Source: a phage. Taken from it: DNA of 64,000 bases. Each line of letters opens with the position of its first letter. Position 1 is the stretch's first letter. Positions 8,061 through 31,217 of the stretch are shown here, in pieces. The DNA is taken from sequence record NC_135728.1. The stretch is one strand, 5' to 3'. The notes beneath the pieces are model-generated. The model made no database searches. It saw nothing but the letters and a program-made list of their open reading frames with translations, and had not been told where the DNA came from. A program made the translations under genes and the position numbers.

Positions 8061-8089
8061 TTGACATAACCACAAGGACGTGGTATTGT
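8061..8089 (+). promoter_or_regulatory. sigma70-like promoter TTGACA-17-TATTGT with palindromic spacer
   Basis: Spacer contains CCACAAGGACGTGG. Confidence 0.45.
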
Positions 8090-8120
8090 TACCTCATAAA
8101 ATGTTTAGGAGGGCTTAACC

Positions 8121-8327
8121 ATGAAAGATTTTCTGTTGGCAATTTTGTTCATGGCAGCATGTCTGGCCTGTGGTGTCGTGTTTGCAGGTGAAACAGCGTA
8201 TCTTGTCGATGTATATCGGGACAATGGTAAACGTATTTGCCTTTATGAGACAAGTCAAGGTGAGCTCTACGAGCTTGTGAAACAAGGCGAGGCTGGATCT
8301 TGTCCTCGCACCCATTTCTTTGAATGA
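8121..8327 (+). CDS. small lipoprotein (possible spanin-like lysis accessory)
   Basis: AGGAGG RBS; N-terminal signal with lipobox-like LACG; directly downstream of the endolysin. Confidence 0.5.
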   Translation: MKDFLLAILFMAACLACGVVFAGETAYLVDVYRDNGKRICLYETSQGELYELVKQGEAGSCPRTHFFE

Positions 8328-8336
8328 GGAGAATAC

Positions 8337-8801
8337 GTGGAAGACGGACGTTTAATGAAGTCTGAACGCAGGCTTATTGTGCAACTGATCCCAGAAACAG
8401 CTTGGTATAATAACCTCCGAAACGCTGTGAAGAAGAGTGAGTGGGATAAGATCCGTAAGAAGTGCTACAGAGAAGCCAACTACACTTGCGAGGTGTGCGG
8501 AGGTAAAGGCAGCAAACATCCAGTGGAGTGTCATGAACTTTACACTTTCGAAGAAGGAGTGATCCGTCTTGTCGGACTGATAGCGTTGTGCCCAGACTGT
8601 CACACATCGGTGCATCCTGGGTTAGCAAATATCCGTGGAAAGTATGCTCAGGCAGTTAATCAGTTGGCTAAGGTGAATAAGATCACCAAGGGTATGGCAG
8701 AGGCGTATTACCGAGACTGCTTTGCAGAGTGGCGTGAGCTTAGTAAAGTTCCAGAATGGAAGACTGACTTTTCGTGGATAGAGGGTTACCTTGATGGCTA
8801 A
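8337..8801 (+). CDS. HNH endonuclease
   Basis: CEVCGG ... HPVECHE ... CPDCH zinc/HNH-type motif; GTG start after GAGGAG. Confidence 0.65.
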   Translation: MEDGRLMKSERRLIVQLIPETAWYNNLRNAVKKSEWDKIRKKCYREANYTCEVCGGKGSKHPVECHELYTFEEGVIRLVGLIALCPDCHTSVHPGLANIRGKYAQAVNQLAKVNKITKGMAEAYYRDCFAEWRELSKVPEWKTDFSWIEGYLDG

Positions 8802-9084
8802 GAAACCTGTAAAAGAGAAATTTGATAAGACAGCTTTTGTATTCGATACACCTTTGGACGATATCATCAGAGGTATGCAAGCCTTGTATCGGAAGTCTGA
8901 ATCTGAGCAGCTGTCGGAATCAGAGCTTTACTGGTTGGGTTGGTGGGAGCTTAATCTACCTAAAGCTGAAAGCTCTGATCTAAAAACCGTTAAAACGTGT
9001 GCCCAAGAAAATGCTGCACTTGGAATTTACCACAAAAGAAAAAGATCAACAAAAAGCTCTCCAAGAAAGACTAAAAAGTCTTGA
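8794..9084 (+). CDS. hypothetical protein, basic C-terminus
   Basis: Track ORF; ATG at 8794 after GAGGG. Confidence 0.45.
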   Translation: MAKKPVKEKFDKTAFVFDTPLDDIIRGMQALYRKSESEQLSESELYWLGWWELNLPKAESSDLKTVKTCAQENAALGIYHKRKRSTKSSPRKTKKS

Positions 9085-9110
9085 CAAATGAGTCTCTGAT
9101 CTGATATTAT
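9081..9110 (+). promoter_or_regulatory. sigma70-like promoter TTGACA-17/18-TATTAT
   Basis: Consensus -35 and near-consensus -10 before gene 9144. Confidence 0.45.
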
Positions 9111-9143
9111 CAGTTAACTATTTATTAACTAGGAGAACTAGGT

Positions 9144-9452
9144 ATGCTTAAAATTTTTATTGTTGAAGATAAAGATATCGTCCAGTTGTATGCAAACGAG
9201 AATCACAAAGGTATGATTCTGAAGAAGGCAAAAAACCTTCATGAAAACACAATTCAACCGGGTGATGTAATTAAGATCTGTGGTTATATGATACCAGACT
9301 CCTTGATGAAAATAACCCACCACTGGGGGTCTAATCCGTTCCTTTTTGAAAAGTATTGGGATGTTGAGTCACTTATTGCAGAGAGTGATGATGCATTTCA
9401 TTACAGCATCCAACCATCTTGCAGAATAACTAACAGGAGGGGCTTTGAGTAG
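9144..9452 (+). CDS. hypothetical protein
   Basis: AGGAGAA RBS. Confidence 0.5.
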   Translation: MLKIFIVEDKDIVQLYANENHKGMILKKAKNLHENTIQPGDVIKICGYMIPDSLMKITHHWGSNPFLFEKYWDVESLIAESDDAFHYSIQPSCRITNRRGFE

Positions 9453-10584
9453 AGAATATCCACTTATTGAATCTGTAGATTGTCTTGCTGATCTTCTCGA
9501 ACCTGACGCTATAGTTTATTATGACTTCGACCAGGTTGCATATCAAGCTGCGGCAAGTTGTGAAAAAAGGACAATTGAGGTAACACACAAAGCCTCCGGA
9601 CGTAAGAAGATGTTTAAAACACGAACAGAGTTCTGGGGGCGGCAGAAAAACACCGTTGGTGGTTGGTTAAAAGCTGAGAATACCAACCGTGAAGCCGCAT
9701 GTAAAAAGGCTGGAAAGGAGTTTATTCCGTGGACACGCGAAGATTTCGATGTCTTGGATATCCAAACCCCTGATCCTGTAGAGAACTGCTTACACACAAT
9801 TAAGTGTAAAGCTAATGCAGTTCTTAACTATCTTGGTATTCCGGAAGAGCGATGTGTCGGGGTGTTGGGAGGCACAGGTAACTTCAGACTAGATCTTCCA
9901 ATGCCGGAAAGATACAAAGCCAACCGTAACAATACTCTTCGACCACTGCTGCTTGGAGATGCAAGACAGTATCTCCAAAAGCAGTATAATGCTCAAGTGA
10001 TCAACGGTATCGAGGCTGACGACTGGTTAGCTATCCAGCAATTTGAAGGTTGGAACCACTACCAAAAAACAGGTAAGTTCAACAAGTTTATTATCTCTAT
10101 TGATAAGGACCAAAGAACACTACCTGGACTTGTGTTCGATCCCATGCGAAACGATAAGGGAGATTTTGTAAGGGAAACCCCTATGCTGATCGATAACGGC
10201 ATGGGAAACATCTTCATGAAGCCTAATGGAGAGGTTGGTGGTTACGGAATGCTGTTCTTCGGATACCAAATGCTGTGTGGTGACTCTGCTGACAACATCA
10301 AGCCGTATCAAGGACTTATCGGTAAGGGTAAGTTCGGGGATGCCTCAGCATTCTACCTGCTGTCTCAGTGCAGCACTCCAAAGGAGATGTGGGTGGCTAT
10401 TATTGATCAGTACAAGAAGTGGTTCCCGAAAGGTGTTGTTAAGTATACTGACTTCAATGGCATTGATCGTAGAATTTCCGTAGGTCAATGGATGAGTATA
10501 ATTTTTGACTGTTTGTATATGAAGCGAACATTCAATGATCAAACAAAACTTGTTAACGTTCTTAGAAATGTTGGAGCAATTTGA
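9445..10584 (+). CDS. 5'-3' exonuclease / flap endonuclease (T5 D15-like)
   Basis: GIEADDWLAI (cf. D15 GVEADD), SIDKDQRTL, MLCGDSADNIKPYQGLIGKGKFGDA helix-3-turn-helix; TTG start after AGGAGGGG. Confidence 0.75.
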   Translation: MSREYPLIESVDCLADLLEPDAIVYYDFDQVAYQAAASCEKRTIEVTHKASGRKKMFKTRTEFWGRQKNTVGGWLKAENTNREAACKKAGKEFIPWTREDFDVLDIQTPDPVENCLHTIKCKANAVLNYLGIPEERCVGVLGGTGNFRLDLPMPERYKANRNNTLRPLLLGDARQYLQKQYNAQVINGIEADDWLAIQQFEGWNHYQKTGKFNKFIISIDKDQRTLPGLVFDPMRNDKGDFVRETPMLIDNGMGNIFMKPNGEVGGYGMLFFGYQMLCGDSADNIKPYQGLIGKGKFGDASAFYLLSQCSTPKEMWVAIIDQYKKWFPKGVVKYTDFNGIDRRISVGQWMSIIFDCLYMKRTFNDQTKLVNVLRNVGAI

Positions 10585-10916
10585 TGACTAAAAATGCTGT
10601 AGATAATGCAATTATGGAAGCTGTTTTTGAGGATGATCATACAACAGGGACACTTAAAACAAAAAACACATTTATTGTTGCCACAGGTATGTGGCGGTTG
10701 TACGAAGATGACACTATTGCATACATCTTGTATACTGATGATTACGCAGATGACCGTGTATGGTCTGCTGTTTTAAAAGAGGATTGTGAGCTGATTGAGG
10801 GCGAGCGGTTATGCATGTTCACCAGTGTGGAAACAGATGTTAAGCTTTGCTCTCTCGTCTTGTTCAAAGATAAGGCTTATGCTCCTGATGAAGGAGAGGA
10901 GGATGAGAGAGCATGA
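10584..10916 (+). CDS. hypothetical acidic protein
   Basis: Track ORF. Confidence 0.5.
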   Translation: MTKNAVDNAIMEAVFEDDHTTGTLKTKNTFIVATGMWRLYEDDTIAYILYTDDYADDRVWSAVLKEDCELIEGERLCMFTSVETDVKLCSLVLFKDKAYAPDEGEEDERA

Positions 10917-11542
10917 GAGAGCGTCTATTATCCATAGACCAGTCGTTGACACACACAGCTTGCGTTGTATGGGACGATGGAAAGCCTGTTCATAAGGTTG
11001 TGTTACGAACTCAAAGCTCATCTGCAAAAGAGAAGAAACCAGGGACGGTTTCTTTTGCAACAGCTGCTGAGCGCATTGACTGGATCTGCAAACAGGTCAG
11101 ATATTATATCCACACGCACGGAGTTGACACCGTGGTTATGGAAGGGCTTTCCTTTGGATCACGCGGTGATGCCACACGTGAGCTGGCTGGGCTGTTTTAC
11201 GGTCTTGAAATTATGCTTTGGGATGCCTTAGCTGATTGTGAAAATGACGGCCTGTTTAAGGTCCACACAGTGACACCAACAACTGCCAAAAAGTTTGCTC
11301 GTAGTCATCTTCCTGAAGAACTTGCTTTTGAGGAGAAGAAAAAGCTTGACAAAAAGACAGGTAAAGAGCATACTGTGAAGAAACCTGTTACAATGGATAA
11401 AAAGTTGATGGTTAAGGCCTGCGAAGTATCTGAACCTGGGTTCCTAGATGGGATCAATTTGGTACAAGGTAAGGCCGATCTCGCAGATGCTTATTGGATA
11501 GGCAGGGCTCATCTGGAGGGATTATCGCAAAGCGTAAAATAA
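10913..11542 (+). CDS. RuvC-like Holliday junction resolvase
   Basis: SIDQSLTHTACVV, VVMEGLSFGSRGD, C-terminal ADLADA; ATGA overlap with upstream gene. Confidence 0.6.
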   Translation: MRERLLSIDQSLTHTACVVWDDGKPVHKVVLRTQSSSAKEKKPGTVSFATAAERIDWICKQVRYYIHTHGVDTVVMEGLSFGSRGDATRELAGLFYGLEIMLWDALADCENDGLFKVHTVTPTTAKKFARSHLPEELAFEEKKKLDKKTGKEHTVKKPVTMDKKLMVKACEVSEPGFLDGINLVQGKADLADAYWIGRAHLEGLSQSVK

Positions 11543-12099
11543 GAAAGAAAGCTGTCAAAGCCCCAGTTCATAACGGGTGGTTAAAAGATTCTAAGGACAT
11601 AGCCAACTTTCGAAAAGAATTGTCAGAGGAGCAGGATGGTCTTGATCCGATCTTGTGCGAGCCACTTCGTAAGCCTTGTTTAGATCATGATCATCTGACT
11701 GGTCGTTGCAGGGGTGTTTTGTCTCAATGCACTAATACCTTTGAGGGATATGTGCTTAAATACTGGATGAAATACTGTAACGAGTATACAGATTGCAGTT
11801 TATCAGAGGCGTTGCGCCGGATGGCTGACTATTTGGAGAAAGACTACAGCGACTTCCCGCTCCACAAAAACTACAGAGATGATATGACAAAGTTCTTGAG
11901 GAGATGCTCTAAAGCTACGATTATTGCACGAGCAGAATCAGATCTAAATCTTGTCATTAATCCGGAGTGCACCAAGCATGAGGCTATTGAGTTCTACATG
12001 CAGGAGTTTATAAAGAAAACTGAGGAGAGAGATTTCTATGGGGATGAAAAAGGTATTCAATCCTTGCGACTCAGTCCTGATCAGGATGAAATACCGTAA
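11494..12099 (+). CDS. endonuclease VII-like HNH nuclease domain protein
   Basis: CLDHDHLTGRCRGVLSQCTN (DHxHxTGxxRGxLxxxCN); only start available in frame is TTG at 11494 with no RBS, 48 nt inside previous gene. Confidence 0.5.
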   Translation: MDRQGSSGGIIAKRKIRKKAVKAPVHNGWLKDSKDIANFRKELSEEQDGLDPILCEPLRKPCLDHDHLTGRCRGVLSQCTNTFEGYVLKYWMKYCNEYTDCSLSEALRRMADYLEKDYSDFPLHKNYRDDMTKFLRRCSKATIIARAESDLNLVINPECTKHEAIEFYMQEFIKKTEERDFYGDEKGIQSLRLSPDQDEIP

Positions 12100-12259
12100 C
12101 TGGAAAGGTGTTGTTGCAGATCGCTGCGTTACTGAGCCTAATTTATGGTTTGGATCTACAGAGTATCATAAAGAAGAGCAGTGGTTGATGCGTGCCTTCG
12201 ATGTAGACAAGGGCGAATATCGTGACTTCGCTTTAAAAGACATTCTTCAGTTTTACTAA
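12038..12259 (+). CDS. hypothetical protein
   Basis: GGAGAGAG RBS; overlaps previous ORF end. Confidence 0.35.
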   Translation: MGMKKVFNPCDSVLIRMKYRNWKGVVADRCVTEPNLWFGSTEYHKEEQWLMRAFDVDKGEYRDFALKDILQFY

Positions 12260-12271
12260 GGAATCTTAACG

Positions 12272-13255
12272 ATGATGACAAAGTTAACTCTTGAGCAAAT
12301 TTTAACACTAAAGCAACAGGGATACACTAATAGACAAATTGCTCGTGAATTTTTAGGCCGTGAGTCACGTGAGAGCTGGATCCGACTACAGCTTAAACGT
12401 GCACAAGAGAATATGTCAGAGATTGTAGGAGAAGCAACGGAGCGCTTCCTTGAAGAACACAAAGGTGCTAAAGTTTGGGTGTATGATACAGAGACATCCC
12501 CAACAAACGGCTGGTTCTTTGGGCACTATAAGACCAACATTCAAACCTGTGGTATTGAAGTTATGCCCTATATGCTAACTTTCGCAGGTAAGTGGTTAGA
12601 CAGCCCTAGTGTGGTTGACTGCGCTCTTCCAGATTACAAAATGTGGGATGAAGATATTCACAATGATCTCGAATTGATTCAGGATTTGTGGTATTATCTG
12701 GATAAATGCGATGTCGCAGTAGCCCACAATTCAGGTTTTGACTGCGGGTGGGCCAACCAACGATTTGCATTTCACGGGTTGCCTCCAACAAGCCCCTACA
12801 AAGAGGTTGACACCCTTAAAATGATCAAGAAGGCATTCCGTTTGAATGCAAACACTTTGGAGTATGCATGCAAATACTTCCAACTGGCCAGACAGAAACT
12901 GATTGATCACACATTTGAAATGTGGATCAAGTGTGTCCATGGCGATCTTGAGGCATTTAAACAGATGCGGGAGTATAATGTTGGTGATATCCTGTCTCTG
13001 GAAGGACTGTATTTGCTGGCTCGCCCGTTTGCTAAGCAGCACCCAAACATGTCATTGTACTACCAGGACGAGGAGCCAAAGGTTCGTTGCCCACGCTGTG
13101 GTGGAGAACACTTTCACGAGGAAGAAGCTTTGGCATATACTCAGCTGAGTGCATTTAAAACATACCGCTGCGAAGGTTGTGGATCTGTTGTTCGTGACCG
13201 TAACAACATCCGTACCAGAGAAGAAATGAAAAACACCCTGATTCAGATAATCTAA
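12272..13255 (+). CDS. DEDDh 3'-5' exonuclease with N-terminal HTH and C-terminal zinc ribbon
   Basis: Exo motifs YDTETS, HNSGFD, YNVGD; CPRCGG...CEGCGS; HTH-like LKQQGYTNRQIAREF. Confidence 0.6.
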   Translation: MMTKLTLEQILTLKQQGYTNRQIAREFLGRESRESWIRLQLKRAQENMSEIVGEATERFLEEHKGAKVWVYDTETSPTNGWFFGHYKTNIQTCGIEVMPYMLTFAGKWLDSPSVVDCALPDYKMWDEDIHNDLELIQDLWYYLDKCDVAVAHNSGFDCGWANQRFAFHGLPPTSPYKEVDTLKMIKKAFRLNANTLEYACKYFQLARQKLIDHTFEMWIKCVHGDLEAFKQMREYNVGDILSLEGLYLLARPFAKQHPNMSLYYQDEEPKVRCPRCGGEHFHEEEALAYTQLSAFKTYRCEGCGSVVRDRNNIRTREEMKNTLIQII

Positions 13256-13263
13256 CAATTATA

Positions 13264-13291
13264 GGGAGGCTTGCGCCTCCCTTTTCCTTTT
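13264..13291 (+). terminator. rho-independent terminator
   Basis: GGGAGGC-TTGC-GCCTCCC followed by TTTTCCTTTT. Confidence 0.6.
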
Positions 13292-13300
13292 GGAGGCACT

Positions 13301-14119
13301 TTGAGCAAGAAAGAGTCCAACGACAAATATTACACAAACCCTGAGTATGCAGAATATCTTGTTGGTAAAGTAAAAGACAAGTATGGGAATTGTGCATACG
13401 TTGAGCCTTCTGCTGGAAGGGGTTCTTTTTCAAAACTATTTTCAAAGATACTGTCGTACGATCTAGTACCAGATCCTGAATTTGAAGGACCAACACAGTG
13501 CATTCAGGCAAACTTCTTGGAGGTGCATCCTAAGGCAGATGTCTTCATAGGTAACCCACCATTTGGCAAGAATTCATCTTTAGCTTGCAAATTCTTTAAC
13601 CATTGTGCATCATTGCTAGAGCTTGGCGGGGCTATAGCCTTCATCTTGCCACGGACATTTGAAAAAATATTTTTTGCAAACAAACTGGACATGTCTATGC
13701 ACCTTGTCTACAGCGAAAGGTGCCCTAAGAACTCGTTTTTACTTAATGGCAAACCTTACGACGTGCCATGTGTTTTCCAAATTTGGGAGAAAAAGGCGTG
13801 CAATAGGGATCCTGTAGAGATTGGAGAGAATAAGTTATTTTCTTTTAGCACTCCGGATGACTACGACTTCTGTGTAAGACGTGTTGGGTATAATGCTGGA
13901 AAAGTATTGGGGGATGATGACCCAAAATCTGAAGAATCGACATATTTCATAAAATCTTTAGTTGACGGTGTTGACAGAGTGTTTGCCGAATGCTATTCTT
14001 CTTTTCAAGAAGAAGCAGGTAAGACTGCTGGAATGAAGAGTATAGGCAAGAAAGAACTACAATACATTTTGGAGACCCGGTATGATCAAAAGCATAGACT
14101 TGACCAAAGAACTTACTGA
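13301..14119 (+). CDS. N6-adenine DNA methyltransferase
   Basis: Motif I-like EPSAGRGSF then motif IV IGNPPFGK; start uncertain (TTG at 13301 after GGAGG; track start lies inside the terminator hairpin). Confidence 0.7.
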   Translation: MSKKESNDKYYTNPEYAEYLVGKVKDKYGNCAYVEPSAGRGSFSKLFSKILSYDLVPDPEFEGPTQCIQANFLEVHPKADVFIGNPPFGKNSSLACKFFNHCASLLELGGAIAFILPRTFEKIFFANKLDMSMHLVYSERCPKNSFLLNGKPYDVPCVFQIWEKKACNRDPVEIGENKLFSFSTPDDYDFCVRRVGYNAGKVLGDDDPKSEESTYFIKSLVDGVDRVFAECYSSFQEEAGKTAGMKSIGKKELQYILETRYDQKHRLDQRTY

Positions 14120-14540
14120 TGCAAAAGCTTTTGGTGAGACAGCGGTACAAAGAGGCCAGGCGATGGGACTGGCACTACCTTTCGTCTTAAAAGAGCACTT
14201 TACAGATTTTCAACTTATCAAAGGTGATAAGGGAATGCTTATCCTGGAGCATAAGTTGAGTAAGAAACGCTACAAAGTTGTTTTTAATTCTAAAGCCCCA
14301 ACAAAACTTGGATTCAGAACTTACAATCTCAACCCATCCTATACTAAGGGTGTTGGAAGGGTAGAACAACAGCATTTCAGTGCTAGAGCTTCTTTAGCCC
14401 CTTTGATGCTAAATTTCTCAGGAGTGGCTTTAGGATACCTTGATAAGAAAAGAGTTCTTCATGTCCGTTTCACAGACTTTGTAACGCTTTTAGCTAACAA
14501 CGAAGTTGATGAAAAGGGACGTGTAAAAACAAACTTCTAA
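14082..14540 (+). CDS. hypothetical protein
   Basis: Track ORF, GGAGAC RBS. Confidence 0.5.
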   Translation: MIKSIDLTKELTDAKAFGETAVQRGQAMGLALPFVLKEHFTDFQLIKGDKGMLILEHKLSKKRYKVVFNSKAPTKLGFRTYNLNPSYTKGVGRVEQQHFSARASLAPLMLNFSGVALGYLDKKRVLHVRFTDFVTLLANNEVDEKGRVKTNF

Positions 14541-14555
14541 TAACGCATAGTATGA

Positions 14556-14759
14556 TTGGAGACCGCAATGACACTAAAGTTAACAATTCCAGACAGCTTT
14601 TCAGAAAACTTTATCCCAGAAATGATGGGTAAGATGCGATCATTGCTTGATCAGATTGAGGAAGCTGTTTGGGAAGACGATGCTGTAGTGGCTAACGAGC
14701 TAGTAGATAAGTGTAAAAGTATTATTGATGCAGTTGAAGAATACTACGGAGGTTTTTGA
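14556..14759 (+). CDS. hypothetical acidic protein
   Basis: Track ORF, GGAGA RBS. Confidence 0.5.
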   Translation: METAMTLKLTIPDSFSENFIPEMMGKMRSLLDQIEEAVWEDDAVVANELVDKCKSIIDAVEEYYGGF

Positions 14760-15373
14760 TGGATATTATTGTTCTTAACGCCCCACCCAGCAGCGGTAAG
14801 GATCACATTGCAGATCTCTTGTTGGAAGCTATTCCTAACTCACACCATCGTGAGGTTAAGGAGATGCTCTTCAGCGTGGCAATTAAGGCAGCTGGTGTAA
14901 CTCCTCAACTCTGGAATGCACTTTATGACCGCCACTACAAAGAAGAGCCTTGCCCTTTCTTAATGATAGACGGCAAGCATGTTTCTCCGCGAGAGTGGAT
15001 GATCCATTGTAGTGAAAATCTGATTAAACCTATCTTTGGTGAAGATGCTTTCGGTAAGGCCGCAGTCACATCCTTGAAGAAAGATTTCCCTAAAGGTAAA
15101 GGGGTTGTTGTTTACTCCGATGGTGGATTTAAAGAGGAGCTGGCGTGCCTTAGTGAGTACGCATACAGCACAGGTGGAGATCTGTTGTTGTTCCGTATTC
15201 ACCGTGTCGGATATGACTGGGGAAATGATTCCAGAACCTATCTAAGTCTGGAAAAGAACGGAATAAAAGGGATTGAGTTCGATGTTGTAAATCCTGAAGG
15301 TGCACCTTGGGAATGTGCATCGGAGATTGTGTGCAAGTATATTGATGCTAAAGAGGCCCAAGAAGAATGTTAA
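14759..15373 (+). CDS. deoxynucleoside monophosphate kinase-like P-loop protein
   Basis: NAPPSSGKDHIADLL (SGKD as in T4 gp1 dNMP kinase). Confidence 0.5.
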   Translation: MDIIVLNAPPSSGKDHIADLLLEAIPNSHHREVKEMLFSVAIKAAGVTPQLWNALYDRHYKEEPCPFLMIDGKHVSPREWMIHCSENLIKPIFGEDAFGKAAVTSLKKDFPKGKGVVVYSDGGFKEELACLSEYAYSTGGDLLLFRIHRVGYDWGNDSRTYLSLEKNGIKGIEFDVVNPEGAPWECASEIVCKYIDAKEAQEEC

Positions 15374-15960
15374 TCGGAATTGATGTAGATTTGACACTGG
15401 TAGATTCAGGAACAGCATGGTGGGAGTGGTTGGAGCGTTTGTATGGTCCAGCCAGTAAGACAGTCGTTAAACCTTCTAATGGGCTGATGTATTACGATCT
15501 GTCAAAGTATTGGCCTGATCGCCCCAAAGAAAACATCATAGGACCTTTTGATTTCTGGAGTGATCCGTTCCTCTACGACTTCCTTAAGCCTGAAGAGGGG
15601 GCTATTGAGGTTATGAAAGATTTGGTGGCTCGCGGTCACAAGCTCGCATTTATCTCGGTATGCAAGAAAGGTCACCTTGCATCTAAATCAAGGTTCTTAA
15701 AGCGTTGGACCAGTGATTTTATGGATCTGGATGATCACACCCAGGGTCACGGCTTCTACGCCACACATTTCAAAGGTAATGTGGCTGTAGATGTTATAAT
15801 TGACGACAGGCATGAATACCTGAACCAATTCGCTTCACGACCTGAAGTTATTAAAATCCTAAAAGACACACCTTATGAGCAATTCGAGGAGTTAAAGGTC
15901 AGTGTTGACTATACCACTAATAGCTGGTATAAAATAGGAAAGTTTTTAGAAGGTATTTGA
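15367..15960 (+). CDS. HAD-superfamily hydrolase, 5'(3')-deoxyribonucleotidase-like
   Basis: N-terminal IGIDVDLTLVD (DxDxT). Confidence 0.55.
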   Translation: MLIGIDVDLTLVDSGTAWWEWLERLYGPASKTVVKPSNGLMYYDLSKYWPDRPKENIIGPFDFWSDPFLYDFLKPEEGAIEVMKDLVARGHKLAFISVCKKGHLASKSRFLKRWTSDFMDLDDHTQGHGFYATHFKGNVAVDVIIDDRHEYLNQFASRPEVIKILKDTPYEQFEELKVSVDYTTNSWYKIGKFLEGI

Positions 15961-15961
15961 A

Positions 15962-17145: not shown

Positions 17146-17174
17146 TCCTATCACAGCGATAGGTAACTTTTGTG

Positions 17175-17203: not shown

Positions 17204-17243
17204 AATGGCTCACTTTGTTGGTGAGCCAGAAATGGAGACAGAT

Positions 17244-17705: not shown

Positions 17706-17715
17706 GGTGGTGAAG

Positions 17716-23788: not shown

Positions 23789-23791
23789 TAC

Positions 23792-23821
23792 TTGACAAAA
23801 GCCACAAGGATGTGGCATATT
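23792..23821 (+). promoter_or_regulatory. sigma70-like promoter with palindromic spacer
   Basis: TTGACA then CCACAAGGATGTGG in the spacer; weak -10 (CATATT). Confidence 0.35.
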
Positions 23822-23851
23822 ATTGACACACAGTGAGCTAGGAGGTACAGT

Positions 23852-23968
23852 ATGTCTAAAGGTATTTATAAAATTTGCAAGTGTGGTTGTCGTTGCAATC
23901 TTCGTTGGTGCAAGGCACTTGATGATTTTATTTGGCATTGCCCTGAATGCGATGCGGAGTACTTATAA
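23852..23968 (+). CDS. small cysteine-rich (zinc-ribbon-like) protein, 38 aa
   Basis: AGGAGGT RBS; MSKGIYKICKCGCRCNLRWCKALDDFIWHCPECDAEYL; shorter than track threshold. Confidence 0.4.
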   Translation: MSKGIYKICKCGCRCNLRWCKALDDFIWHCPECDAEYL

Positions 23969-24119
23969 GCATAAGGGGTCGAAATGCGGAAATCTATCAA
24001 GAAAATCAAGATAAGATTGTTGGTACTGAAGCGTAAGTATAAAAAGTTATACGGCTTCATTAAATGGACTTTTATAGGTTTATCTTGAATAGAAGCACAC
24101 CACAGAAGAGAGGTTCCTT

Positions 24120-24356
24120 ATGATAGGTGTCTGTGTAAAAGCTAACAGATGGTTTACATTCGGTAAGGATTACGAAATTATCTTTCATTCGGACAGAGCC
24201 ACAACAGTAGAAAGCGATGATGGGTGCTACTGGTTCGTTAGTTACCATGGTGATGGGTATTATAGATCTACTGATTCCAGAGGGGAAGAAGCTGTTTTCT
24301 TAGATAGAGCTTATTGTGGGCCTGAATATCCCTACCTCAAAGAGGATAAGGAATGA
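24120..24356 (+). CDS. hypothetical protein
   Basis: GAGAGG RBS. Confidence 0.5.
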   Translation: MIGVCVKANRWFTFGKDYEIIFHSDRATTVESDDGCYWFVSYHGDGYYRSTDSRGEEAVFLDRAYCGPEYPYLKEDKE

Positions 24357-24826
24357 ATGTTGTTAATATTATAGAGTGTAGCATGGTTGACGGCCCAGGC
24401 ATTAGGACAACGGTGTTCTGTTCTGGTTGCCCACATCACTGTGTCGGTTGCCAAAACAAAAGTGTTTGGTCACCAGCTAAAGGTGAACCGTTAACAAATG
24501 ACACTATTGAGAGTATACTTCACTCTATAGAGCCGAAACATATTACTGGCGTTACATTATGCGGTGGCGAACCTTTAGCGCCTTACAATATCGATGGTAT
24601 GTACTCGATCATTCGCGCTATCCGTGAACGCTTCGGCAACACAAAAACTATCTGGGTGTACACAGGGTATTTGTTTGAAGAGGTTCCCGATCACATTAAA
24701 GATAGTGTCGATTACATTATGGATGGTAAGTACGAAAAAGATAACCCTACCAAAAAAACCTTCAGAGGTAGTGATAACCAAAGAATGTTTAAAAAGGTAG
24801 CAGGCGGTTGGGTTCAGGTTGACTAA
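24353..24826 (+). CDS. nrdG: anaerobic ribonucleotide reductase activating protein (radical SAM)
   Basis: CPHHCVGC (CxxxCxxC) near N-terminus; ATGA overlap with upstream gene. Confidence 0.85.
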   Translation: MNVVNIIECSMVDGPGIRTTVFCSGCPHHCVGCQNKSVWSPAKGEPLTNDTIESILHSIEPKHITGVTLCGGEPLAPYNIDGMYSIIRAIRERFGNTKTIWVYTGYLFEEVPDHIKDSVDYIMDGKYEKDNPTKKTFRGSDNQRMFKKVAGGWVQVD

Positions 24827-24829
24827 TTG

Positions 24830-24859
24830 TTGACAAAGCTTTGTTAAGTTGGTTATAAT
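24830..24859 (+). promoter_or_regulatory. sigma70-like promoter TTGACA-18-TATAAT
   Basis: Consensus hexamers, followed by a GGAGGTG RBS. Confidence 0.6.
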
Positions 24860-24882
24860 TAGGAAAGCAGAGGAGGTGCCAA

Positions 24883-24996
24883 ATGGCTAAAAAAGCCTTG
24901 AAGAAGGCGTACAAAAAAGAAATTGCGCTTGAGCTTAAGAAAAAACACAAGCGTGAAAAGAAACATCATGAGGATGAAGAGGGGGTGCAACAGTGA
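24883..24996 (+). CDS. small lysine-rich protein, 37 aa
   Basis: GGAGGTG RBS; stop overlaps GTG start of next gene (GTGA). Confidence 0.35.
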   Translation: MAKKALKKAYKKEIALELKKKHKREKKHHEDEEGVQQ

Positions 24997-25343
24997 CACA
25001 AGAACGTATCGATTTGGCTAATAAGTTTGTAGATCTCATTTTGCCACGGTTAGTTACTCAACATGCAGACGCTATTTCTACTAATCTTGATGGCTTACGC
25101 CTAATGCTGAATCGCACAGATGACCCTCGTATTCGGGCTGATTTAGAAGCCTCTGCCAACAAACTGGAAAAGTTCTTGCAAGTAGACACGCAAGAAGCCT
25201 TACACAAGATTATGGTGGAAGGTTTCTCTAAAGAATTTACCATTAAAGAGCTTAAGGAGCTGATCCACCAAGAAGAGATGAATATCCGAGTTCAGGCTGT
25301 TGCAAGCAGCATGGAAGCGGCTATTGAAAAACTGTTGCAGTAA
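24993..25343 (+). CDS. hypothetical protein
   Basis: Track ORF, GTG start after GAGGGGG. Confidence 0.5.
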   Translation: MTQERIDLANKFVDLILPRLVTQHADAISTNLDGLRLMLNRTDDPRIRADLEASANKLEKFLQVDTQEALHKIMVEGFSKEFTIKELKELIHQEEMNIRVQAVASSMEAAIEKLLQ

Positions 25344-25381
25344 AAGTACTTGACACATCTCAATCTGAAAGGAGTCCCAAC

Positions 25382-26170
25382 ATGGGTCGAGCTAAAGAAA
25401 CAAAACGCATGCGTGATGAAGCTAGAGAGGCTCGCAAATCTGATCGCCTGCGTAAGGCTGCTGAGAAATTTGCTGACGAACGAGAGCACACAGCTCCAGC
25501 TCTCCGACCAATGAATAAAAAGCAGCAAAAGTATCTTGATTATCTAGGGTCACGTAAGATTATTATTGTAAACGGTGTGTTTGGATCCGGTAAGACATTC
25601 ATGGCATCTGCATATGCAGGTGATCTTCTGCGTAAGAACGAGATTGATAAGATCATTGTTGCACGTCCTTACGTTCAGACAGGAAAGACTTCAGGATTTA
25701 AACCTGGAAATGCAATGCAGAAACTGTGGCCCTATCTTAGAAGCATGATGGACACGATTTGTCGTCGTGTTGGCAAAGGTGCTTTTGCCGCAATGCTGGG
25801 AGACGGTCAGAACAGCCGTATCGAGATTTGTGAGGTTGAAAGCATTCGTGGTCGTAGTTTCGATGAGCGATGCTTTGTCCTGATTGACGAGGCACAGCAA
25901 ACTAACCCTGAAGAAATGTTGTCAATTATCACAAGGATCTCTGATCAGGCCACTCTTGTAATTATGGGAGATAATAGTCAACGTGACATCCCTGGTAAAT
26001 CTGGCCTTGCATGGGTGACAGATTTCTTTACTCGTCATCCAGATCCTGAGGTTGGAATGATCAGCTTTGATAGTCCAGACGATGTCGTTCGTTCCGGGTT
26101 GGGTCGTCAGATTGCACTCAATCTTATTGAGGATCGTGCAAATCATATTTGGACCCCTGTTTCCGAGTAA
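25382..26170 (+). CDS. phoH: PhoH-like ATPase
   Basis: Walker A GVFGSGKTFMA, Walker B LIDEAQQ; AAGGAG RBS. Confidence 0.85.
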   Translation: MGRAKETKRMRDEAREARKSDRLRKAAEKFADEREHTAPALRPMNKKQQKYLDYLGSRKIIIVNGVFGSGKTFMASAYAGDLLRKNEIDKIIVARPYVQTGKTSGFKPGNAMQKLWPYLRSMMDTICRRVGKGAFAAMLGDGQNSRIEICEVESIRGRSFDERCFVLIDEAQQTNPEEMLSIITRISDQATLVIMGDNSQRDIPGKSGLAWVTDFFTRHPDPEVGMISFDSPDDVVRSGLGRQIALNLIEDRANHIWTPVSE

Positions 26171-26214
26171 CACAGAAGGGTGGTTATTCCACCCTTAGAT
26201 ATCTAAAACAGTTG

Positions 26215-26243
26215 TTGACAAATAGGTAAGCTTTAGATATTAT
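26215..26243 (+). promoter_or_regulatory. sigma70-like promoter TTGACA-17-TATTAT
   Basis: Preceded by GGGTGG-TTATT-CCACCC hairpin after phoH. Confidence 0.45.
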
Positions 26244-26268
26244 TATCGGACAAGGAGAAGGAGATAGT

Positions 26269-26580
26269 ATGGCTACAGTACAAGAGAAACTGAATAAAAT
26301 ATACTGCCTGTTTGTCTATAACGGCGAGACAATTCTGGCATATAAAGGATCCAAGAATGTATGGATCAAGGACAGTGGTGGTAATATAATCAACTTAGCG
26401 TTGCTACGTGAGCGCCGACACAGATTCTTTATCGAGTCTCGGATTATTGAAAGCAGCACCTGCTACAGAACAGGCGATAAAGTAATTGTTGACAATGATA
26501 CGTGGTATGTGGTAGACTGGCAATCATTGAGCTGTGATGCTTCTGACAATCGTAAGTATTCTATAGTGATTGCTAAATAA
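26269..26580 (+). CDS. hypothetical protein
   Basis: AAGGAGA RBS. Confidence 0.5.
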   Translation: MATVQEKLNKIYCLFVYNGETILAYKGSKNVWIKDSGGNIINLALLRERRHRFFIESRIIESSTCYRTGDKVIVDNDTWYVVDWQSLSCDASDNRKYSIVIAK

Positions 26581-26639
26581 AGGTAAATGTGAATCAGGTT
26601 TAATAAATAGCTTTCAACTTCCAATATTAAGGATTTCTC

Positions 26640-27689
26640 ATGAATTTAACACCTCGCAGCACCATGGTACACGGCATGAAAGAAAAACAGAACGGTTTCG
26701 AACCTATGAGTAATAAAATGTTTGGTATGCCAGGTGGTATTATGGAAACATACAGCTACCCAACACCAGTTGTTGACCACGTTCTTTATATCGACGATTT
26801 GGAAGACTTACAAGATCATATGTCTCGTCTACAGACGATCCGTATGGCTCAGCCGGAAGAAAGCATTCGGGTGATCATCAATAGCCCTGGGGGTTGCGTG
26901 CACATTGCAATGGCTTATCTGCAGGCATTCCGTGAGTCTCAGGCAAGCGTTGTTGCACATGCTGAAGGGATGTGCTGCTCTGCGGGAACAATCTTATGGC
27001 TGGGTTGCAAAGAGCGCACTGTTGCTCCGGACACAGAGTTTATGTTCCACTACTACCAAGGTGGCACCTATGGTAACGGTGTGAACATGAATACCCAGAT
27101 CAACTACTGGAAGAAACGTTTTGAACGCCTGATCGAAAAATACTACGGTGGGGTGTTAACAGAAGATGAGATCGCATCCATCACAGCTGGCGGTGAAGTG
27201 TGGTTAGATGGAGAAGAGCTGGCATCTAGAACTGGTGCTATCATTCTGGACGATGAAAACATTCAGCGCATTCAGAATGGACAGAAACCGAAAAAGCTTT
27301 TGGCAAAAAGTGATGAAGAAGGTGTGCTAGGCGAAGCAGGCCTGCCAGAGATTCACCAATGCACATCTCTGGACGAGCTGGTTCATGCTGTTGAGTCTGC
27401 AAAAGCAAATGGTATGAAAGATGATGTTCACACTGTGTTCCTGAATCTGCAGATGGAAAGTGGCGAGACAGTCAGGATCGCCCTGGGTGAAATTACTTCA
27501 GAAGATCTGCAGCGATTCTCTGTCGTCGAACTTCAGGATATTCTGTCTCAATTGAAGACTACTCTGAACGGCGGTGAAGAGGTTAAGGTGAAAGACAAGA
27601 CCCGCAAGCGTCTGATGGACAATATCATTAAAACAGCAAAAGAGCTCAATGAAAAAATCCTGGGTTCAGGAATTGTCGAAGAAGCTTAA
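26640..27689 (+). CDS. ClpP-like (S14-type) serine peptidase domain protein with C-terminal extension
   Basis: INSPGGCVHIAMAYLQAF and GMCCSAGTIL resemble the ClpP core and nucleophile region. Confidence 0.5.
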   Translation: MNLTPRSTMVHGMKEKQNGFEPMSNKMFGMPGGIMETYSYPTPVVDHVLYIDDLEDLQDHMSRLQTIRMAQPEESIRVIINSPGGCVHIAMAYLQAFRESQASVVAHAEGMCCSAGTILWLGCKERTVAPDTEFMFHYYQGGTYGNGVNMNTQINYWKKRFERLIEKYYGGVLTEDEIASITAGGEVWLDGEELASRTGAIILDDENIQRIQNGQKPKKLLAKSDEEGVLGEAGLPEIHQCTSLDELVHAVESAKANGMKDDVHTVFLNLQMESGETVRIALGEITSEDLQRFSVVELQDILSQLKTTLNGGEEVKVKDKTRKRLMDNIIKTAKELNEKILGSGIVEEA

Positions 27690-27702
27690 ACATTAATTCT
27701 AA

Positions 27703-27725
27703 AGCCCTCTTCGGAGGGCTTTTAT
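27703..27725 (+). terminator. rho-independent terminator
   Basis: AGCCCTC-TTCG-GAGGGCT followed by TTTT. Confidence 0.7.
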
Positions 27726-27740
27726 GATCTGGAGATTTGC

Positions 27741-28274
27741 ATGACTTGTGCTAGAAAACCTGATGAACAACGTAACGCATACGATGAGTATGTGACACCG
27801 GAGTGGTGTGCAGAAGGGCTGTATGACCTTATTCCGTTCCCAGAGGACTGGACCTACTTAGAGCCTTGCAGGAATAGTGCCTCAGGTGTGTTCTACTCCC
27901 GTATGCCGTTAGGATCTGCATGGGGAGAAATCCAAGAAGGTGTTGACTATCTGAATACAGAATACAACCATGTTGACTGTATTATCACCAACCCACCATA
28001 CAGTCTGGCCCGTGAGTTTGTAGACAAGGCGTTGAAAGATGCTGACGTAGTTATTATGCTTTTGCGTCTTAATTTTCTGGAAAGCAAAGCCAGATTTGAA
28101 TGGTGGCTTGATAATGCACCTACCACTGTGATCACAATATCTAAGCGTCCATCATTTCAATCAAATGGTAGAACTGACGGGCAAGCATATGCATATTTTG
28201 TGTGGGATAAGAAAAACCGTTTAGACTTGCCGCCATTTATGTGGTTGGCACCCCCAGAGGTAGACCTGAAATGA
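27741..28274 (+). CDS. small Dam-like N6-adenine DNA methyltransferase
   Basis: CIITNPPYS (NPPY motif IV) in a 177 aa protein. Confidence 0.65.
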   Translation: MTCARKPDEQRNAYDEYVTPEWCAEGLYDLIPFPEDWTYLEPCRNSASGVFYSRMPLGSAWGEIQEGVDYLNTEYNHVDCIITNPPYSLAREFVDKALKDADVVIMLLRLNFLESKARFEWWLDNAPTTVITISKRPSFQSNGRTDGQAYAYFVWDKKNRLDLPPFMWLAPPEVDLK

Positions 28275-28555
28275 AAATGAGTGCTAAGGACAAATTACAC
28301 CAACTGGCGCTAAAACGTCCTGTAACGCTTCCTGACGAGCTTAACTCTATTTATGATGCGATTGTAGGGGAGATACAAAATAAAGCGTTAGCAGGCTTTC
28401 TGGGATGCGGATTTTCGATAAATCTACCCTCGCATCTCTCAGATTACTTCCCGCATATTGTTGGGGATTTGAGGGCAGGAGGTCTGCAGGTAGATGTTGT
28501 TGGCATCTCTCCAGAGAAAAATAACACGGTTGCCTACTTGACAGTAACTTGGTAG
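28271..28555 (+). CDS. hypothetical protein
   Basis: ATGA overlap with MTase stop; GAGGTAG RBS. Confidence 0.45.
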   Translation: MKMSAKDKLHQLALKRPVTLPDELNSIYDAIVGEIQNKALAGFLGCGFSINLPSHLSDYFPHIVGDLRAGGLQVDVVGISPEKNNTVAYLTVTW

Positions 28556-28589
28556 TTGTGTATTGTTGTTATCAACAAGGGGGTCATTT

Positions 28590-28829
28590 ATGTACAAGTC
28601 ATTTTCAATTTACTCAAGACAGGCGAAACATTACACAGAGATTCTAATCACTCAGAAAAAATCTGTAGAAGGTGAGTGGGAATATCATCATAAAATGTTG
28701 CGTCCAGACTGGGTTTTTGATAGGCTTATTGCTATGATCCCTCTTGGAGAAGTATACCCTCTGACAGGTCATAGGGATGCTTGGGATTTAATTGATTACA
28801 TAGATTCATTTAAGGAGCCTAGTGTATGA
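28590..28829 (+). CDS. hypothetical protein
   Basis: ATG after CAAGGGGG. Confidence 0.45.
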   Translation: MYKSFSIYSRQAKHYTEILITQKKSVEGEWEYHHKMLRPDWVFDRLIAMIPLGEVYPLTGHRDAWDLIDYIDSFKEPSV

Positions 28830-29224
28830 AGATTGAGATCACTAAAGAAGGTAAGAAAGTGTCTGGCGATTATGCAACAGTAATTCGGGATGTAATGTTC
28901 GAAGTAACCCAGACTGGTACGTCTAAGGTTGGTCAAACGGTAAGTGTGCAAGGTAATATTGCCGCAGGTGAAAAGATAATCATCGTGATCAAAGGACAAG
29001 ACCCTGTGGAAGGAACAGTGGGCCGAGGAGGCTACCTGTGTATTTCTGAAGAACCTCGTATGCTGGTTGCTGATAACTCCACAGGTAAAAAGCGGGTATG
29101 TAACACGGACGAGGTGATGATTATCTATCCAGTCAACCCAGATGATCCGGCAACATGGATTGTGGGAAATGAAATCTTCTCTTTAGAAGAGTTATCCTTC
29201 CCAGCTCCGCGCTCTGTTCAGTAA
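28826..29224 (+). CDS. hypothetical protein
   Basis: ATGA overlap; AAGGAG RBS. Confidence 0.5.
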   Translation: MKIEITKEGKKVSGDYATVIRDVMFEVTQTGTSKVGQTVSVQGNIAAGEKIIIVIKGQDPVEGTVGRGGYLCISEEPRMLVADNSTGKKRVCNTDEVMIIYPVNPDDPATWIVGNEIFSLEELSFPAPRSVQ

Positions 29225-29263
29225 TAATTTATCTTACCAGGGACGGTAGAAGTAGGAGGTAGC

Positions 29264-29497
29264 ATGAAAGTTAAATTTCTTACAGATTTAGGGTACCCTT
29301 CCTTGGTTGACTGTGTTGGTAAAATTGTGGAAGCAAAACGGCTATCTGCAAACGAGAATGTTGTCATGGTTAAGGGAAAAGATTTATTAGCTGCAGGTGC
29401 AGAGTCTGGCAGGGTCTCTCCTGACTATACGTATTACCTGTCTTTAAGTAATCTACCAGAACGAGGCGGCAAAGGCCTTGAAGTTGTGGAGGAGTGA
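29264..29497 (+). CDS. small acidic protein, paralog family A
   Basis: MKVKFL... start, acidic VVEE C-terminus; GTAGGAGG RBS. Confidence 0.5.
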   Translation: MKVKFLTDLGYPSLVDCVGKIVEAKRLSANENVVMVKGKDLLAAGAESGRVSPDYTYYLSLSNLPERGGKGLEVVEE

Positions 29498-29502
29498 CAG
29501 GT

Positions 29503-30027
29503 ATGCTTCTGATTAACTGGGAAGACCTCTATGGGGACAAAGACCCTGTTGCGTTTGTTGATCGTAGATGGAGATATACTGAAGAACAACTGGCTGCAAA
29601 AAATTTAACTGCAAAACGCAGAAAGATCATCCAGTGCAAGTATAAATACGCACAGTTTGCTGCAAAAGTGTCTCCCCAAATCGAGAGCTTTGTGCTTAAA
29701 TTGTATGACGAGTACCTCAAATTCAAACTGGATTTTGTACAGGTATACCGTGCACAGATACGCCCAGATACCAGCATTTGTAGATGGAAGGTTGTTTGTG
29801 ACGGTAAAGATTTGCCACTCAGCTTGACAATTGAGCAGCGTTGGGGGTATCATGAGTGCGGTCTGTATGAGACTTGGGATGTCATTGTAGATCCTGCTAA
29901 GTACCTGAACACAGAGGAGCTGGAATATATCAATAAGGTTATTCTCGATATGTTTTTCAGATACACCTGTGAAAACTCTGAGAAAGAACGGGATAATTTT
30001 CTTGACACCATCAGCAACCATCTGTAG
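29503..30027 (+). CDS. hypothetical protein
   Basis: ATG after GGAG (track start is GTG at 29494). Confidence 0.5.
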   Translation: MLLINWEDLYGDKDPVAFVDRRWRYTEEQLAAKNLTAKRRKIIQCKYKYAQFAAKVSPQIESFVLKLYDEYLKFKLDFVQVYRAQIRPDTSICRWKVVCDGKDLPLSLTIEQRWGYHECGLYETWDVIVDPAKYLNTEELEYINKVILDMFFRYTCENSEKERDNFLDTISNHL

Positions 30028-30057
30028 TATACAATTTAACCTACAAAGGGAGGGCTA

Positions 30058-30294
30058 ATGAGTATAAATGTTGTGCTAATAGGTTACCTGGTAATAGCAG
30101 TTATAACAGCGGTATTCTTGACAGGTATATGCATCGTGTCTAGACGAAGGGTGAAGTTTGATGATTTTATCACCATCATCACTGCTGCACCTTTTTGGCC
30201 TATTGTTATCTTCATCGTAATAATGTGCCTAGTTGATTACTACAAGAATATCCGTAAGGAGAAAAAGGAGAGTAGGGATGGAGACCGCGCCTAA
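30058..30294 (+). CDS. small membrane protein (two predicted TM helices)
   Basis: Hydrophobic stretches VVLIGYLVIAVITAVFL and FWPIVIFIVIMCLV; GGGAGGG RBS. Confidence 0.5.
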   Translation: MSINVVLIGYLVIAVITAVFLTGICIVSRRRVKFDDFITIITAAPFWPIVIFIVIMCLVDYYKNIRKEKKESRDGDRA

Positions 30295-30495
30295 AACTGT
30301 TTATACTGTTCTTAAAGAGATTGCGTTCTACGCAGATCTTAGCCAGGCACCTTTATGGGAAAAGAGCATGTATTTAAAATGGTGCGTTAATTTATGGAGA
30401 CCTTCCAGTGTTTCAAGCCATGTTTATTGAGATGCTATCTGGGGTATTGTTACTGGTAGCCATCTTAGGTGGTGCAGTTCTGATGTATAACTATC

Positions 30496-30699
30496 TTGAA
30501 AAAGGAGACAGCAATGGCAAAAAATAAATCTTTAGAGCAGGCTGAAAACCTTCTCCACGAGCTAGTAAAGGAGTGGAAAGTTGAATACTCAGATTTTAAT
30601 GCACGAGAGGGTGAAGATTATTGGCCTACGGAGCGCTCAGAGGGCGAATGGTATCAAGATTTTATAGAGTGGTTATATCAGACGTGTGATGAGGGGTGA
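30496..30699 (+). CDS. hypothetical protein
   Basis: AAGGAGA RBS. Confidence 0.5.
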   Translation: MKKETAMAKNKSLEQAENLLHELVKEWKVEYSDFNAREGEDYWPTERSEGEWYQDFIEWLYQTCDEG

Positions 30700-30701
30700 C
30701 G

Positions 30702-31157
30702 ATGTTTGTTAAATATGTAAAAACGTGCCTCAACAGTCTTGGCAGAGAGCATTGGTACACCTTACTTGAAAAAGGAGAAATTTTAACAAAATCTGGAAAG
30801 ATAACTTTGATACCCTTGGACGATAAAGACCCGTCACTCCTTGTCATAGATGATTACGTTACAGGTGTGTCGTACGAGGTCTCTGTGGAGAGGTTAATAC
30901 GCAGATCTGGAGGTCCTTATGACCGAAGAGAGTATGTTTTCGATTCTGTTACAGAGAAGGAAGATCCGTCTCTAATGTTCAGGATGGTAATCAGAGATAT
31001 GAGGTCATCTATAGACAGGATCGTAAAGGACATTAAGGAGCCTTTTAGGGTAAAAGTTAAGAAGTTTTTTGATTCTAAGATTAACATACTTGCCGTTGTG
31101 CTAGGCGTAATTCAACTTCTGTTAATTTTGCACTATCTTGAACTGTTGTTTAAGTAG
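30702..31157 (+). CDS. hypothetical protein with C-terminal TM helix
   Basis: C-terminal ILAVVLGVIQLLLILHYL. Confidence 0.5.
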   Translation: MFVKYVKTCLNSLGREHWYTLLEKGEILTKSGKITLIPLDDKDPSLLVIDDYVTGVSYEVSVERLIRRSGGPYDRREYVFDSVTEKEDPSLMFRMVIRDMRSSIDRIVKDIKEPFRVKVKKFFDSKINILAVVLGVIQLLLILHYLELLFK

Positions 31158-31217
31158 TGTGCAATAAGGCACAAAGGATGTGCCATAACTAAATAAACTA
31201 AGAAAGAGGTAGAGAGA

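Follow-up and report, generated by a model that had tools for sequence, protein, structure and literature searches.

Two promoters in the rightward gene block of a Vequintavirus phage carry the same short hairpin between their -35 and -10 hexamers, and a third, variant copy stands in the same block without a promoter of its own. All three lie in the stretch of 64,000 nucleotides (sequence record NC_135728.1) that was analysed here and is referred to as the window. The element appears to be a composite of a sigma70 promoter and a hairpin acting at the transcript level, a reading to which we give a probability of roughly 55% from sequence comparisons, and that the hairpin acts in RNA seems somewhat more probable still. 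It is best filed as a promoter/stem-loop cassette of the promoter-early stem-loop (PeSL) type, in a new phage subfamily, and is probably not a phage-specific repressor site. Its anatomy, its conservation, its orientation, its recurrence in promoters of T4-like phages and its coincidence with breakpoints are read directly from the aligned genomes.

Anatomy and conservation of the three sites

The sites and the open reading frames (ORFs) that follow them are these:
8061 to 8089, plus strand: site 1, sigma70-type promoter; TTGACA at 8061-8066, taa, CCACAAGGACGTGG at 8070-8083, TATTGT at 8084-8089
8069 to 8084, plus strand: site 1 hairpin ACCAC-AAGGAC-GTGGT; 5-bp stem, ANGGAX hexaloop, RNA dG -5.4 kcal/mol
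8121 to 8327, plus strand: ORFan, 68-aa putative lipoprotein or membrane protein; PHROG 4641, a family without assigned function
23792 to 23821, plus strand: site 2, sigma70-type promoter; TTGACA at 23792-23797, aaag, CCACAAGGATGTGG at 23802-23815, CATATT at 23816-23821
23801 to 23816, plus strand: site 2 hairpin GCCACA-AGGA-TGTGGC; 6-bp stem, dG -7.8 kcal/mol
23852 to 23968, plus strand: 38-aa Cys-rich (zinc-ribbon-like) micro-protein ORF, after site 2
31168 to 31184, plus strand: site 3 hairpin GGCACA-AAGGA-TGTGCC (GGCACAAAGGATGTGCC); 6-bp stem, dG -7.7 kcal/mol
31218 to 31565, plus strand: membrane ORFan, 115 aa; PHROG 11867, found in Vequintavirus only (116 records)

The initial annotation had described a spacer motif, CCACAAGGA(C/T)GTGG, common to the promoters at 8061 and 23792, and direct reading of the sequence agrees with it. 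Both sites are called promoter-like in silico by a consensus scan, each at 10/12 with an extended -10 TG. Site 1 has a 17-nt spacer and the extended -10 TGG+TATTGT at 8081-8089, and the final base of its hairpin doubles as the first base of the -10 hexamer; it is the predicted promoter P090 of the rV5 genome paper, where it was entered only as a promoter (PMC3606486 Table S4). The spacer of site 2 is 18 nt long, with TGG+CATATT at 23813-23821, and the site starts 4 nt past the nrdD stop codon. Its hairpin is terminator-like in a simple terminator scan, which flagged neither site 1 nor site 3. For the third site, at about 31160, the variant copy of the motif is present as annotated, whereas the promoter reading, sound for sites 1 and 2, is weak here: no -35 was found (best match 2-3 of 6), the consensus scan gives no promoter-like call, and the -10-like hexamer at 31184-31189, CATAAC, is without the final T; relatives have CATAGT, CATAAT or CATGAT.

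The search for further copies that had been suggested as a check was run on the window and found the degenerate 14-mer exactly twice. With up to two mismatches allowed there were four matches against 0.74 expected, a number reached in none of 100 shuffles, and the distribution is thus non-random. A general scan of the window for GGA-loop hairpins gave no overall enrichment, and the CACA/TGTG stem was found only at the three sites. All three hairpins lie 10-13 nt past the upstream stop codon and 33-37 nt ahead of the next start codon, the genes upstream of sites 1, 2 and 3 being those for endolysin, nrdD and a 153-aa structural protein. Downstream are, as previously noted, genes for small or membrane-associated proteins, namely the lipoprotein/membrane, Cys-rich and membrane ORFs, which are all ORFans without assigned function, the sole other PHROG label being one copied from the neighbouring nrd genes. 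The 68-aa ORF has its Shine-Dalgarno (SD) sequence, AGGAGGG, at 8107-8113.

The window belongs to Vequintavirus, the rV5-like E. coli myoviruses; stretches of 5 kb and 24 kb matched about 130-170 GenBank phages at 95-98% identity, with Murica, V5 and FFH2 among the close matches. Conservation was followed in Murica, D1, Aya, A147, C15, A141, V18 and JEP1 (genomes or regions) together with one IMG/VR contig. Site 1 is almost unchanged from the -35 through the -10; the relatives all read CCACACGGACGTGG, the A of the window being the odd one out, and changes in the hairpin are confined to the loop, which is ACGGAC in relatives and ACAGAC (CACAGAC) in A141. The site 2 hairpin is identical in five relatives and absent from three (D1, A147 and A141). 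At site 3 all 17 hairpin nucleotides are invariant in the eight relatives and the IMG/VR contig, while several positions differ in the 10-15 nt on each side. Seven other promoters of the same block showed 1-7 substitutions in their spacers in the same genomes. Since these spacers and the flanks of site 3 vary while the motif holds, the motif is under a constraint of its own. Sampling at site 3 was limited in depth by the few rV5-like contigs in IMG/VR and by the confinement of the 115-aa protein to Vequintavirus. In more distant contigs (L002-L004; endolysin 82% identical) the promoter before the lipoprotein gene is kept with an unrelated spacer, which indicates that the hairpin at this locus is not ancient.

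The hairpin cassettes also mark junctions of swapped gene modules. At site 1 several phages become homologous to the window only 4-9 nt before the -35, the gene ahead of that point being a different one, as also in contig L066. In JEP1 an inserted ORF takes over where homology stops, directly after GTGGCA of site 2, and in D1, A147 and A141 site 2 is replaced by a different nrdD end and a terminator-like hairpin. This last hairpin (in L068, L072 and L074, respectively) is GGAGAGC-AAGGAT-GCTCTC with a T-run, a different stem with the same AAGGAT loop, and a TTGACT-N17-TATAGT promoter follows it in all three. The whole gap between nrdD and nrdG (23789-24352; nrdG at 24353) varies among relatives: JEP1 has an insertion of about 1 kb, and an extra 78-aa ORF (24120-24356) is present in the window and A147 and lacking in most relatives. 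The 38-aa Cys-rich ORF is conserved in Murica, though unannotated there, and nrdD is split by HNH or intron insertions in several relatives.

Recurrence of the hairpin in other phages

Short BLAST of site 2 against GenBank phages gave unexpected matches in unrelated phages. Klebsiella T4-like phages carry GTTTAC-ttt-GCCACAAGGATGTGG-TACTAT ahead of cef, and in the Serratia T4-like phage X20 the DNA polymerase gene is followed by GTTTAC-aata-CCACAAGGATGTGG-TATATT. A second promoter copy in Klebsiella phage W15-2, TCACAAGGACGTGA, has its outer pair changed from C:G to T:A. When the T4-like consensus was used as query, 743 phage records matched, T4 itself among them: the gap between gene 60 and rIIA.1 (NC_000866, ~2416-2448, minus strand) reads tAGTTTAC-ttta-CCACAAGGATGTGG-TATAAT and is followed by the ATG. 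The corresponding stretch of phage Lutter is annotated 'promoter'. Dhakavirus has a copy after alt, and further loci occur in Jiaoda- and Winklervirus. The T4 rIIA.1 promoter and these homologous or paralogous early promoters resemble the window in the identical 14-mer in the spacer, which follows the -35 at 3-4 nt and directly adjoins the -10, and in the start codon of a small gene about 30-36 nt downstream. They differ from it in their GTTTAC -35, A-rich upstream tract, TATAAT or TACTAT -10 and other flanking genes.

In IMG/VR the query CCACAAGGATGTGGYA matched 100 stretches against about 47 expected (scaled from a scan with the site 3 15-mer), and 80 of them were fetched. In 21 of the 80, TTGACA or GTTTAC stands as a -35 at 2-5 nt upstream, and GTGG runs straight into an nAnnnT hexamer; these in-register promoter copies represent at least 10 distinct loci and lie in T4-like contigs of 155-177 kb, often two per contig. 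Other recurrent classes are intergenic and promoter-less, one with the hairpin abutting the SD and one with the stems GCCAC and TGCAC in two copies per contig, and two recurrent classes are plain coding sequence. Two copies each, ..accaccGCCACAAGGATGTGGCattaactacaactataaa.. and ..TGCACAAGGATGTGCAt..aactataa, were seen in L180, L189, L200, L207, L221, L246 and other contigs of 4-30 kb, about 25-30 nt ahead of a start codon and without a sigma70 -35. The Serratia vequintavirus Kashira (L169, ON287374, ~34230-34300) has GCCACA-AGGA-TGTGGC, again without a promoter. A match in an Aeromonas phage, a bidirectional terminator-like hairpin between convergent genes, was set aside as probably a chance resemblance, and the IMG/VR scan with the site 3 15-mer itself gave 89 matches, about chance level, in uninformative contexts.

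Operator, promoter determinant or transcript hairpin

The dyad had been interpreted as an operator for a phage or host DNA-binding repressor that would occupy the stretch between -35 and -10 and keep RNA polymerase out. This interpretation is not borne out by the spacing, centre, pairing or orientation of the element, nor by its promoter-less and T4-like copies. The arms are unequally spaced, being CAC-N6-GTG at sites 1 and 2 and CAC-N7-GTG at site 3, which would present a DNA-binding dimer with half-sites at two different distances. Conservation is highest at the centre of the element, (A)AGGAY, a part that usually tolerates change in the operator of a dimer. Changes in the arms come as compensatory pairs, C:G to G:C between site 2 and site 3 and C:G to T:A in a T4-like copy, and copies with GCCAC and TGCAC stems coexist in single IMG/VR contigs. 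At all 12 non-redundant promoter loci the stem is extended by a pair between the base preceding CCAC and the opening base of the -10 hexamer (8 A:T, 2 G:C, 2 G:T; p ~2e-4 against a 50% null); the G:T pairs fit RNA pairing and not a DNA dyad. In every intergenic copy the AAGGAT strand is the sense strand of a gene starting 11-47 nt downstream, and no reversed-loop loci came up when the reverse-complemented loop served as a control query, which only re-found the true loci through four mismatches. The hairpin also occurs without a promoter at site 3, in Kashira, in L224 and in other IMG/VR classes. An identical 14-mer in promoters of unrelated T4-like phages, including T4, argues against the operator of an rV5-specific regulator, and no regulator common to rV5-like and T4-like phages is known, although no search aimed at a cognate protein was made. 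In a comparison with host sites, the NrdR box, DnaA box, CRP, FNR and MalT sites fitted neither in spacing nor in sequence, and the same applied to the MerR-type 19-20-bp spacer and to sigma54, sigma28 and sigma32 promoters. What the element has in common with known spacer operators (MerR-family; synthetic lac/tet between -35 and -10) is an inverted repeat between the hexamers; it differs from them in its normal spacers of 17-18 bp and not 19-20, in arms of only 4-6 bp at variable spacing, in its conserved and oriented centre and in its occurrence without promoters. An operator thus seems unlikely, even though the core promoter contains the element at sites 1 and 2 as well as at 10 or more T4-like loci, the entire spacer is conserved, and the shut-off mechanism of T4 early promoters is still unexplained (PMC2988021). 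An asymmetric DNA-binding protein may also be a reader of the element.

Two further explanations leave out a reader of the hairpin. According to one, RNA polymerase would itself read TGTGG as an extended -10, with the spacer tuning conformation or sigma/beta-prime contacts and the palindrome being incidental. GTGG does always abut TAnnnT or CAnnnT, and T4 early promoters are said to hold extra consensus regions beyond UP, -35, TGn and -10 (PMC2988021), but the complementary 5' arm, the compensatory changes, the closing pair at all 12 loci and the copies without -35 and -10 are left unexplained, and most strong promoters of the same genomes lack the motif; such a promoter-strength element is very improbable. 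The other is the PeSL as published and nothing more. PeSLs of T4-type myoviruses combine a strong promoter with a stem-loop, most often placed between -35 and -10 (Arbiol et al. 2010, PMC2839356; Comeau et al. 2014, PMC4122927); they are enriched beside ORFans in hyperplastic regions, act as recombination points and have been proposed as mediators of modular shuffling, and promoter function has been demonstrated for them, as has terminator function for one element (PMC2839356; PMC4122927). The hairpin would then be a hot spot of recombination and an attenuator or 3'-end hairpin whose sequence does not matter, its loop read by no factor, and the identical 14-mer across loci and families a small cassette spread by recombination or gene conversion. 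This is a possible but rather doubtful alternative. It has the published model behind it (PMC2839356, PMC4122927), as well as the terminator-like call at site 2, the module breakpoints at the sites and the -35, -10 and SD context that T4-like copies also have in common. Against it, rV5-like and T4-like copies share the hairpin alone, with -35 (TTGACA versus GTTTAC), -10 and leaders being different, which suggests selection on the hairpin sequence rather than cassette transfer. The loop AGGA/AAGGAY is furthermore not specially stable and yet is best conserved, neither the stems (-5 to -8 kcal/mol) nor the tails are well suited to termination, and an identity of 14-17 nt is very short for homologous exchange. 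A purely structural attenuator leaves unexplained why the loop is the best conserved part and why the hairpin alone is common to rV5-like and T4-like copies.

The preferred composite would be a host-sigma70 promoter with a short stem-loop built into its spacer, in which the 3' arm TGTGG would double as the extended -10 (TRTGn) and the stem would close on the first -10 base. The conserved and selected unit would be the hairpin, strand-specific, and not the DNA dyad. It would most likely work in read-through RNA from the upstream gene. Transcripts from the embedded promoter are predicted to start downstream of the hairpin and thus to be without it, so that the small downstream ORF would be made from two mRNA forms, with and without the hairpin. 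A protein probably reads the hairpin, given that unrelated phages keep its A(N)GGA(Y) loop and ACA/UGU stem identical to the base. As a fallback, the hairpin would be a weak attenuator or 3'-end stabiliser.

Likeness to CsrA/RsmE targets and PeSLs

The SELEX consensus of E. coli CsrA is RUACARGGAUGU and that of RsmE is (A/U)CANGGANG(U/A). The window element is like the targets of these proteins in being a short hairpin with ACA/UGU closing pairs and an identical core 10-mer, and its predicted loops AAGGAC, AGGA and AAGGA place GGA apically at all three sites. The high-affinity CsrA/RsmE motif consists of a stem that carries an ANGGAX hexaloop (PMC4005645), the feature recognised being GGA in the apical loop (PMC5207318), and RsmE has been reported to bind ACAAGGAUGU, the sequence of the hairpin core, in lipA of P. 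protegens (PMC12134079). Sites 1 and 2 have another GGA some 24-27 nt downstream, within the SD (AGGAGG), where GGA is common anyway. Kashira has a second hairpin, ACAC-AGGA-GTGT, about 41 nt downstream of the first and overlapping the SD in the same intergenic gap, and its paired GGA-loop hairpins have the classic two-site layout of CsrA-repressed leaders. Rfam scans gave no family above threshold; for the site 2 hairpin the only match was the stem-loop of RsmV, an RsmA sponge (E=0.3, far below the gathering score), which is a hint and not evidence. No literature was found on CsrA acting on lytic-phage RNA, and no paper was found that contains the motif string in connection with phages. The foremost candidate for the reader of the hairpin, on a tentative footing, is host CsrA. 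Bound CsrA would tune or repress the read-through form at the level of translation or stability, possibly with a bridge to the GGA of the SD, and transcripts from the embedded promoter would escape it. That lytic phages of Enterobacteria (T4-like and rV5-like) build a high-affinity CsrA ligand into early promoters and intercistronic gaps, the read-through early RNA being CsrA-controlled or, when abundant, a CsrB-type sponge, is slightly more speculative again. A hairpin CAGCAC-AGGGAG-GTGCTG in the early block (61826-61843, minus strand), about 27 nt before a start codon and conserved in D1, is a possible further purine-loop hairpin of similar build.

Stem-loops are also found at other promoters of the window. 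At -9 kcal/mol or below 9 of the 32 credible promoters fold, against 0.72 expected from hexamer-preserving shuffles (none of 300 reached 9); random 41-nt stretches reach -9 kcal/mol in 12.6% of cases. In several of these folding promoters the arms flank the -10, as in the T4-like phage W15-2. Promoters with a stem-loop or palindrome include:
47276 to 47321, 50998 to 51043 and 51619 to 51664, minus strand: three near-identical promoters, repeated cassette ttagatggccTTGAC(A/T)ccagggccatcaataaagTAAA(C/T)T
1680 to 1717, minus strand: promoter palindrome TTGACAgcagggagtaatccctgcTATTTT, 8-bp arms in the spacer
60350 to 60388, minus strand: promoter palindrome GATAGGGCC-taaTATAAT-GGCCCTATC, arms flanking the -10
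43014, minus strand: promoter palindrome ATCCTTG-gttga-CAAGGAT over the -35
36021 and 15905, plus strand: promoters with a palindrome of their own

The three repeats at 47276, 50998 and 51619, in which a stem-loop GATGGCC...GGCCATC wraps the -35 (minimum free energy -17.8 to -19.4 kcal/mol), look like repeated PeSL-type cassettes and lie in the leftward early ORFan block. This block of small early ORFs begins past about 41 kb; the rightward block holds the genes for DNA ligase, endolysin, nucleases, thyX, nrdAB and nrdDG. Between the two, at about 41400-41900, is a non-coding, divergent region with many GACAC/TGACA repeats and overlapping promoter-like sites (e.g. 41424 and 41463). A group I catalytic intron is present at 62258-62493 on the minus strand (Rfam RF00028, full-length match, 64.7 bits, E=4e-14).

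Several points weigh against the composite reading, against its reader or against its class. The match to the CsrA consensus was noticed after the fact, and WCANGGANGW alone is expected about four times per strand in 64 kb. Known CsrA targets are 5' leaders of host mRNAs and sponge sRNAs, unlike the present hairpin, which lies inside a promoter spacer and would be carried only by read-through RNA. Strict dependence on CsrA is at odds with the SD region of site 3, AAGAGGUAGAGAGA, which lacks GGA, and with site 1 of A141, where GGA is replaced by AGA; GGA is kept in 8 of 9 sequences at site 1 and in all at sites 2 and 3. The literature yielded no transcript maps of Vequintavirus, the starts and the read-through thus being predicted, and the exact abutment of hairpin and -10 at about 12 loci would fit an action at the level of DNA or RNA polymerase. 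Unlike the published PeSLs the window elements have short stems (4-6 bp) and not G(n)/C(n) runs (polyG/polyC), their copies are alike over 14-17 nt and the promoter hexamers and not over about 100 bp as in RB49 and phi1, and sites 1 and 2 are without an AT-rich UP tract, the upstream sequence being 3' coding end (ggtgttgtccttgattgatca; ggaagttgtagttgctgatac). The hairpins are short and their U-tracts poor (a weak one at site 2), which makes a terminator role of the published PeSL type doubtful.

What had been supposed to be a phage-specific operator is thus placed in a known, little-studied class, which is extended from T4-like phages to the Vequintavirinae; no description of PeSLs in the Vequintavirinae was found in the literature. 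One exact hairpin is common, base for base, to promoters of unrelated virulent phages, including that of T4 upstream of rIIA.1. Its loop conservation, strand bias and CsrA/RsmE determinants together make a concrete hypothesis, the binding of CsrA to phage early RNA. If true, the expression of early phage genes and the mosaic evolution of genomes would both be linked to CsrA, a global translational regulator of the host, and phages would encode a handle on the Csr system that is present in T4 itself; if the hairpin is only an attenuator, the result is an ordinary improvement of the annotation of rV5-like phages. Compared with the PeSLs the window element differs in its host phage, a Vequintavirus and not a T4-like phage, and in a conserved loop sequence, a feature that the PeSL papers do not report. 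It is like them in having a stem-loop that overlaps the -10 or lies between it and the -35 of a strong sigma70-like promoter (sites 1 and 2; site 3 is without the promoter), in its placement in the short interval that separates a stop codon upstream from an SD and start codon downstream, in its ORFan neighbours, and in its position at junctions of insertion, deletion or replacement between close relatives.

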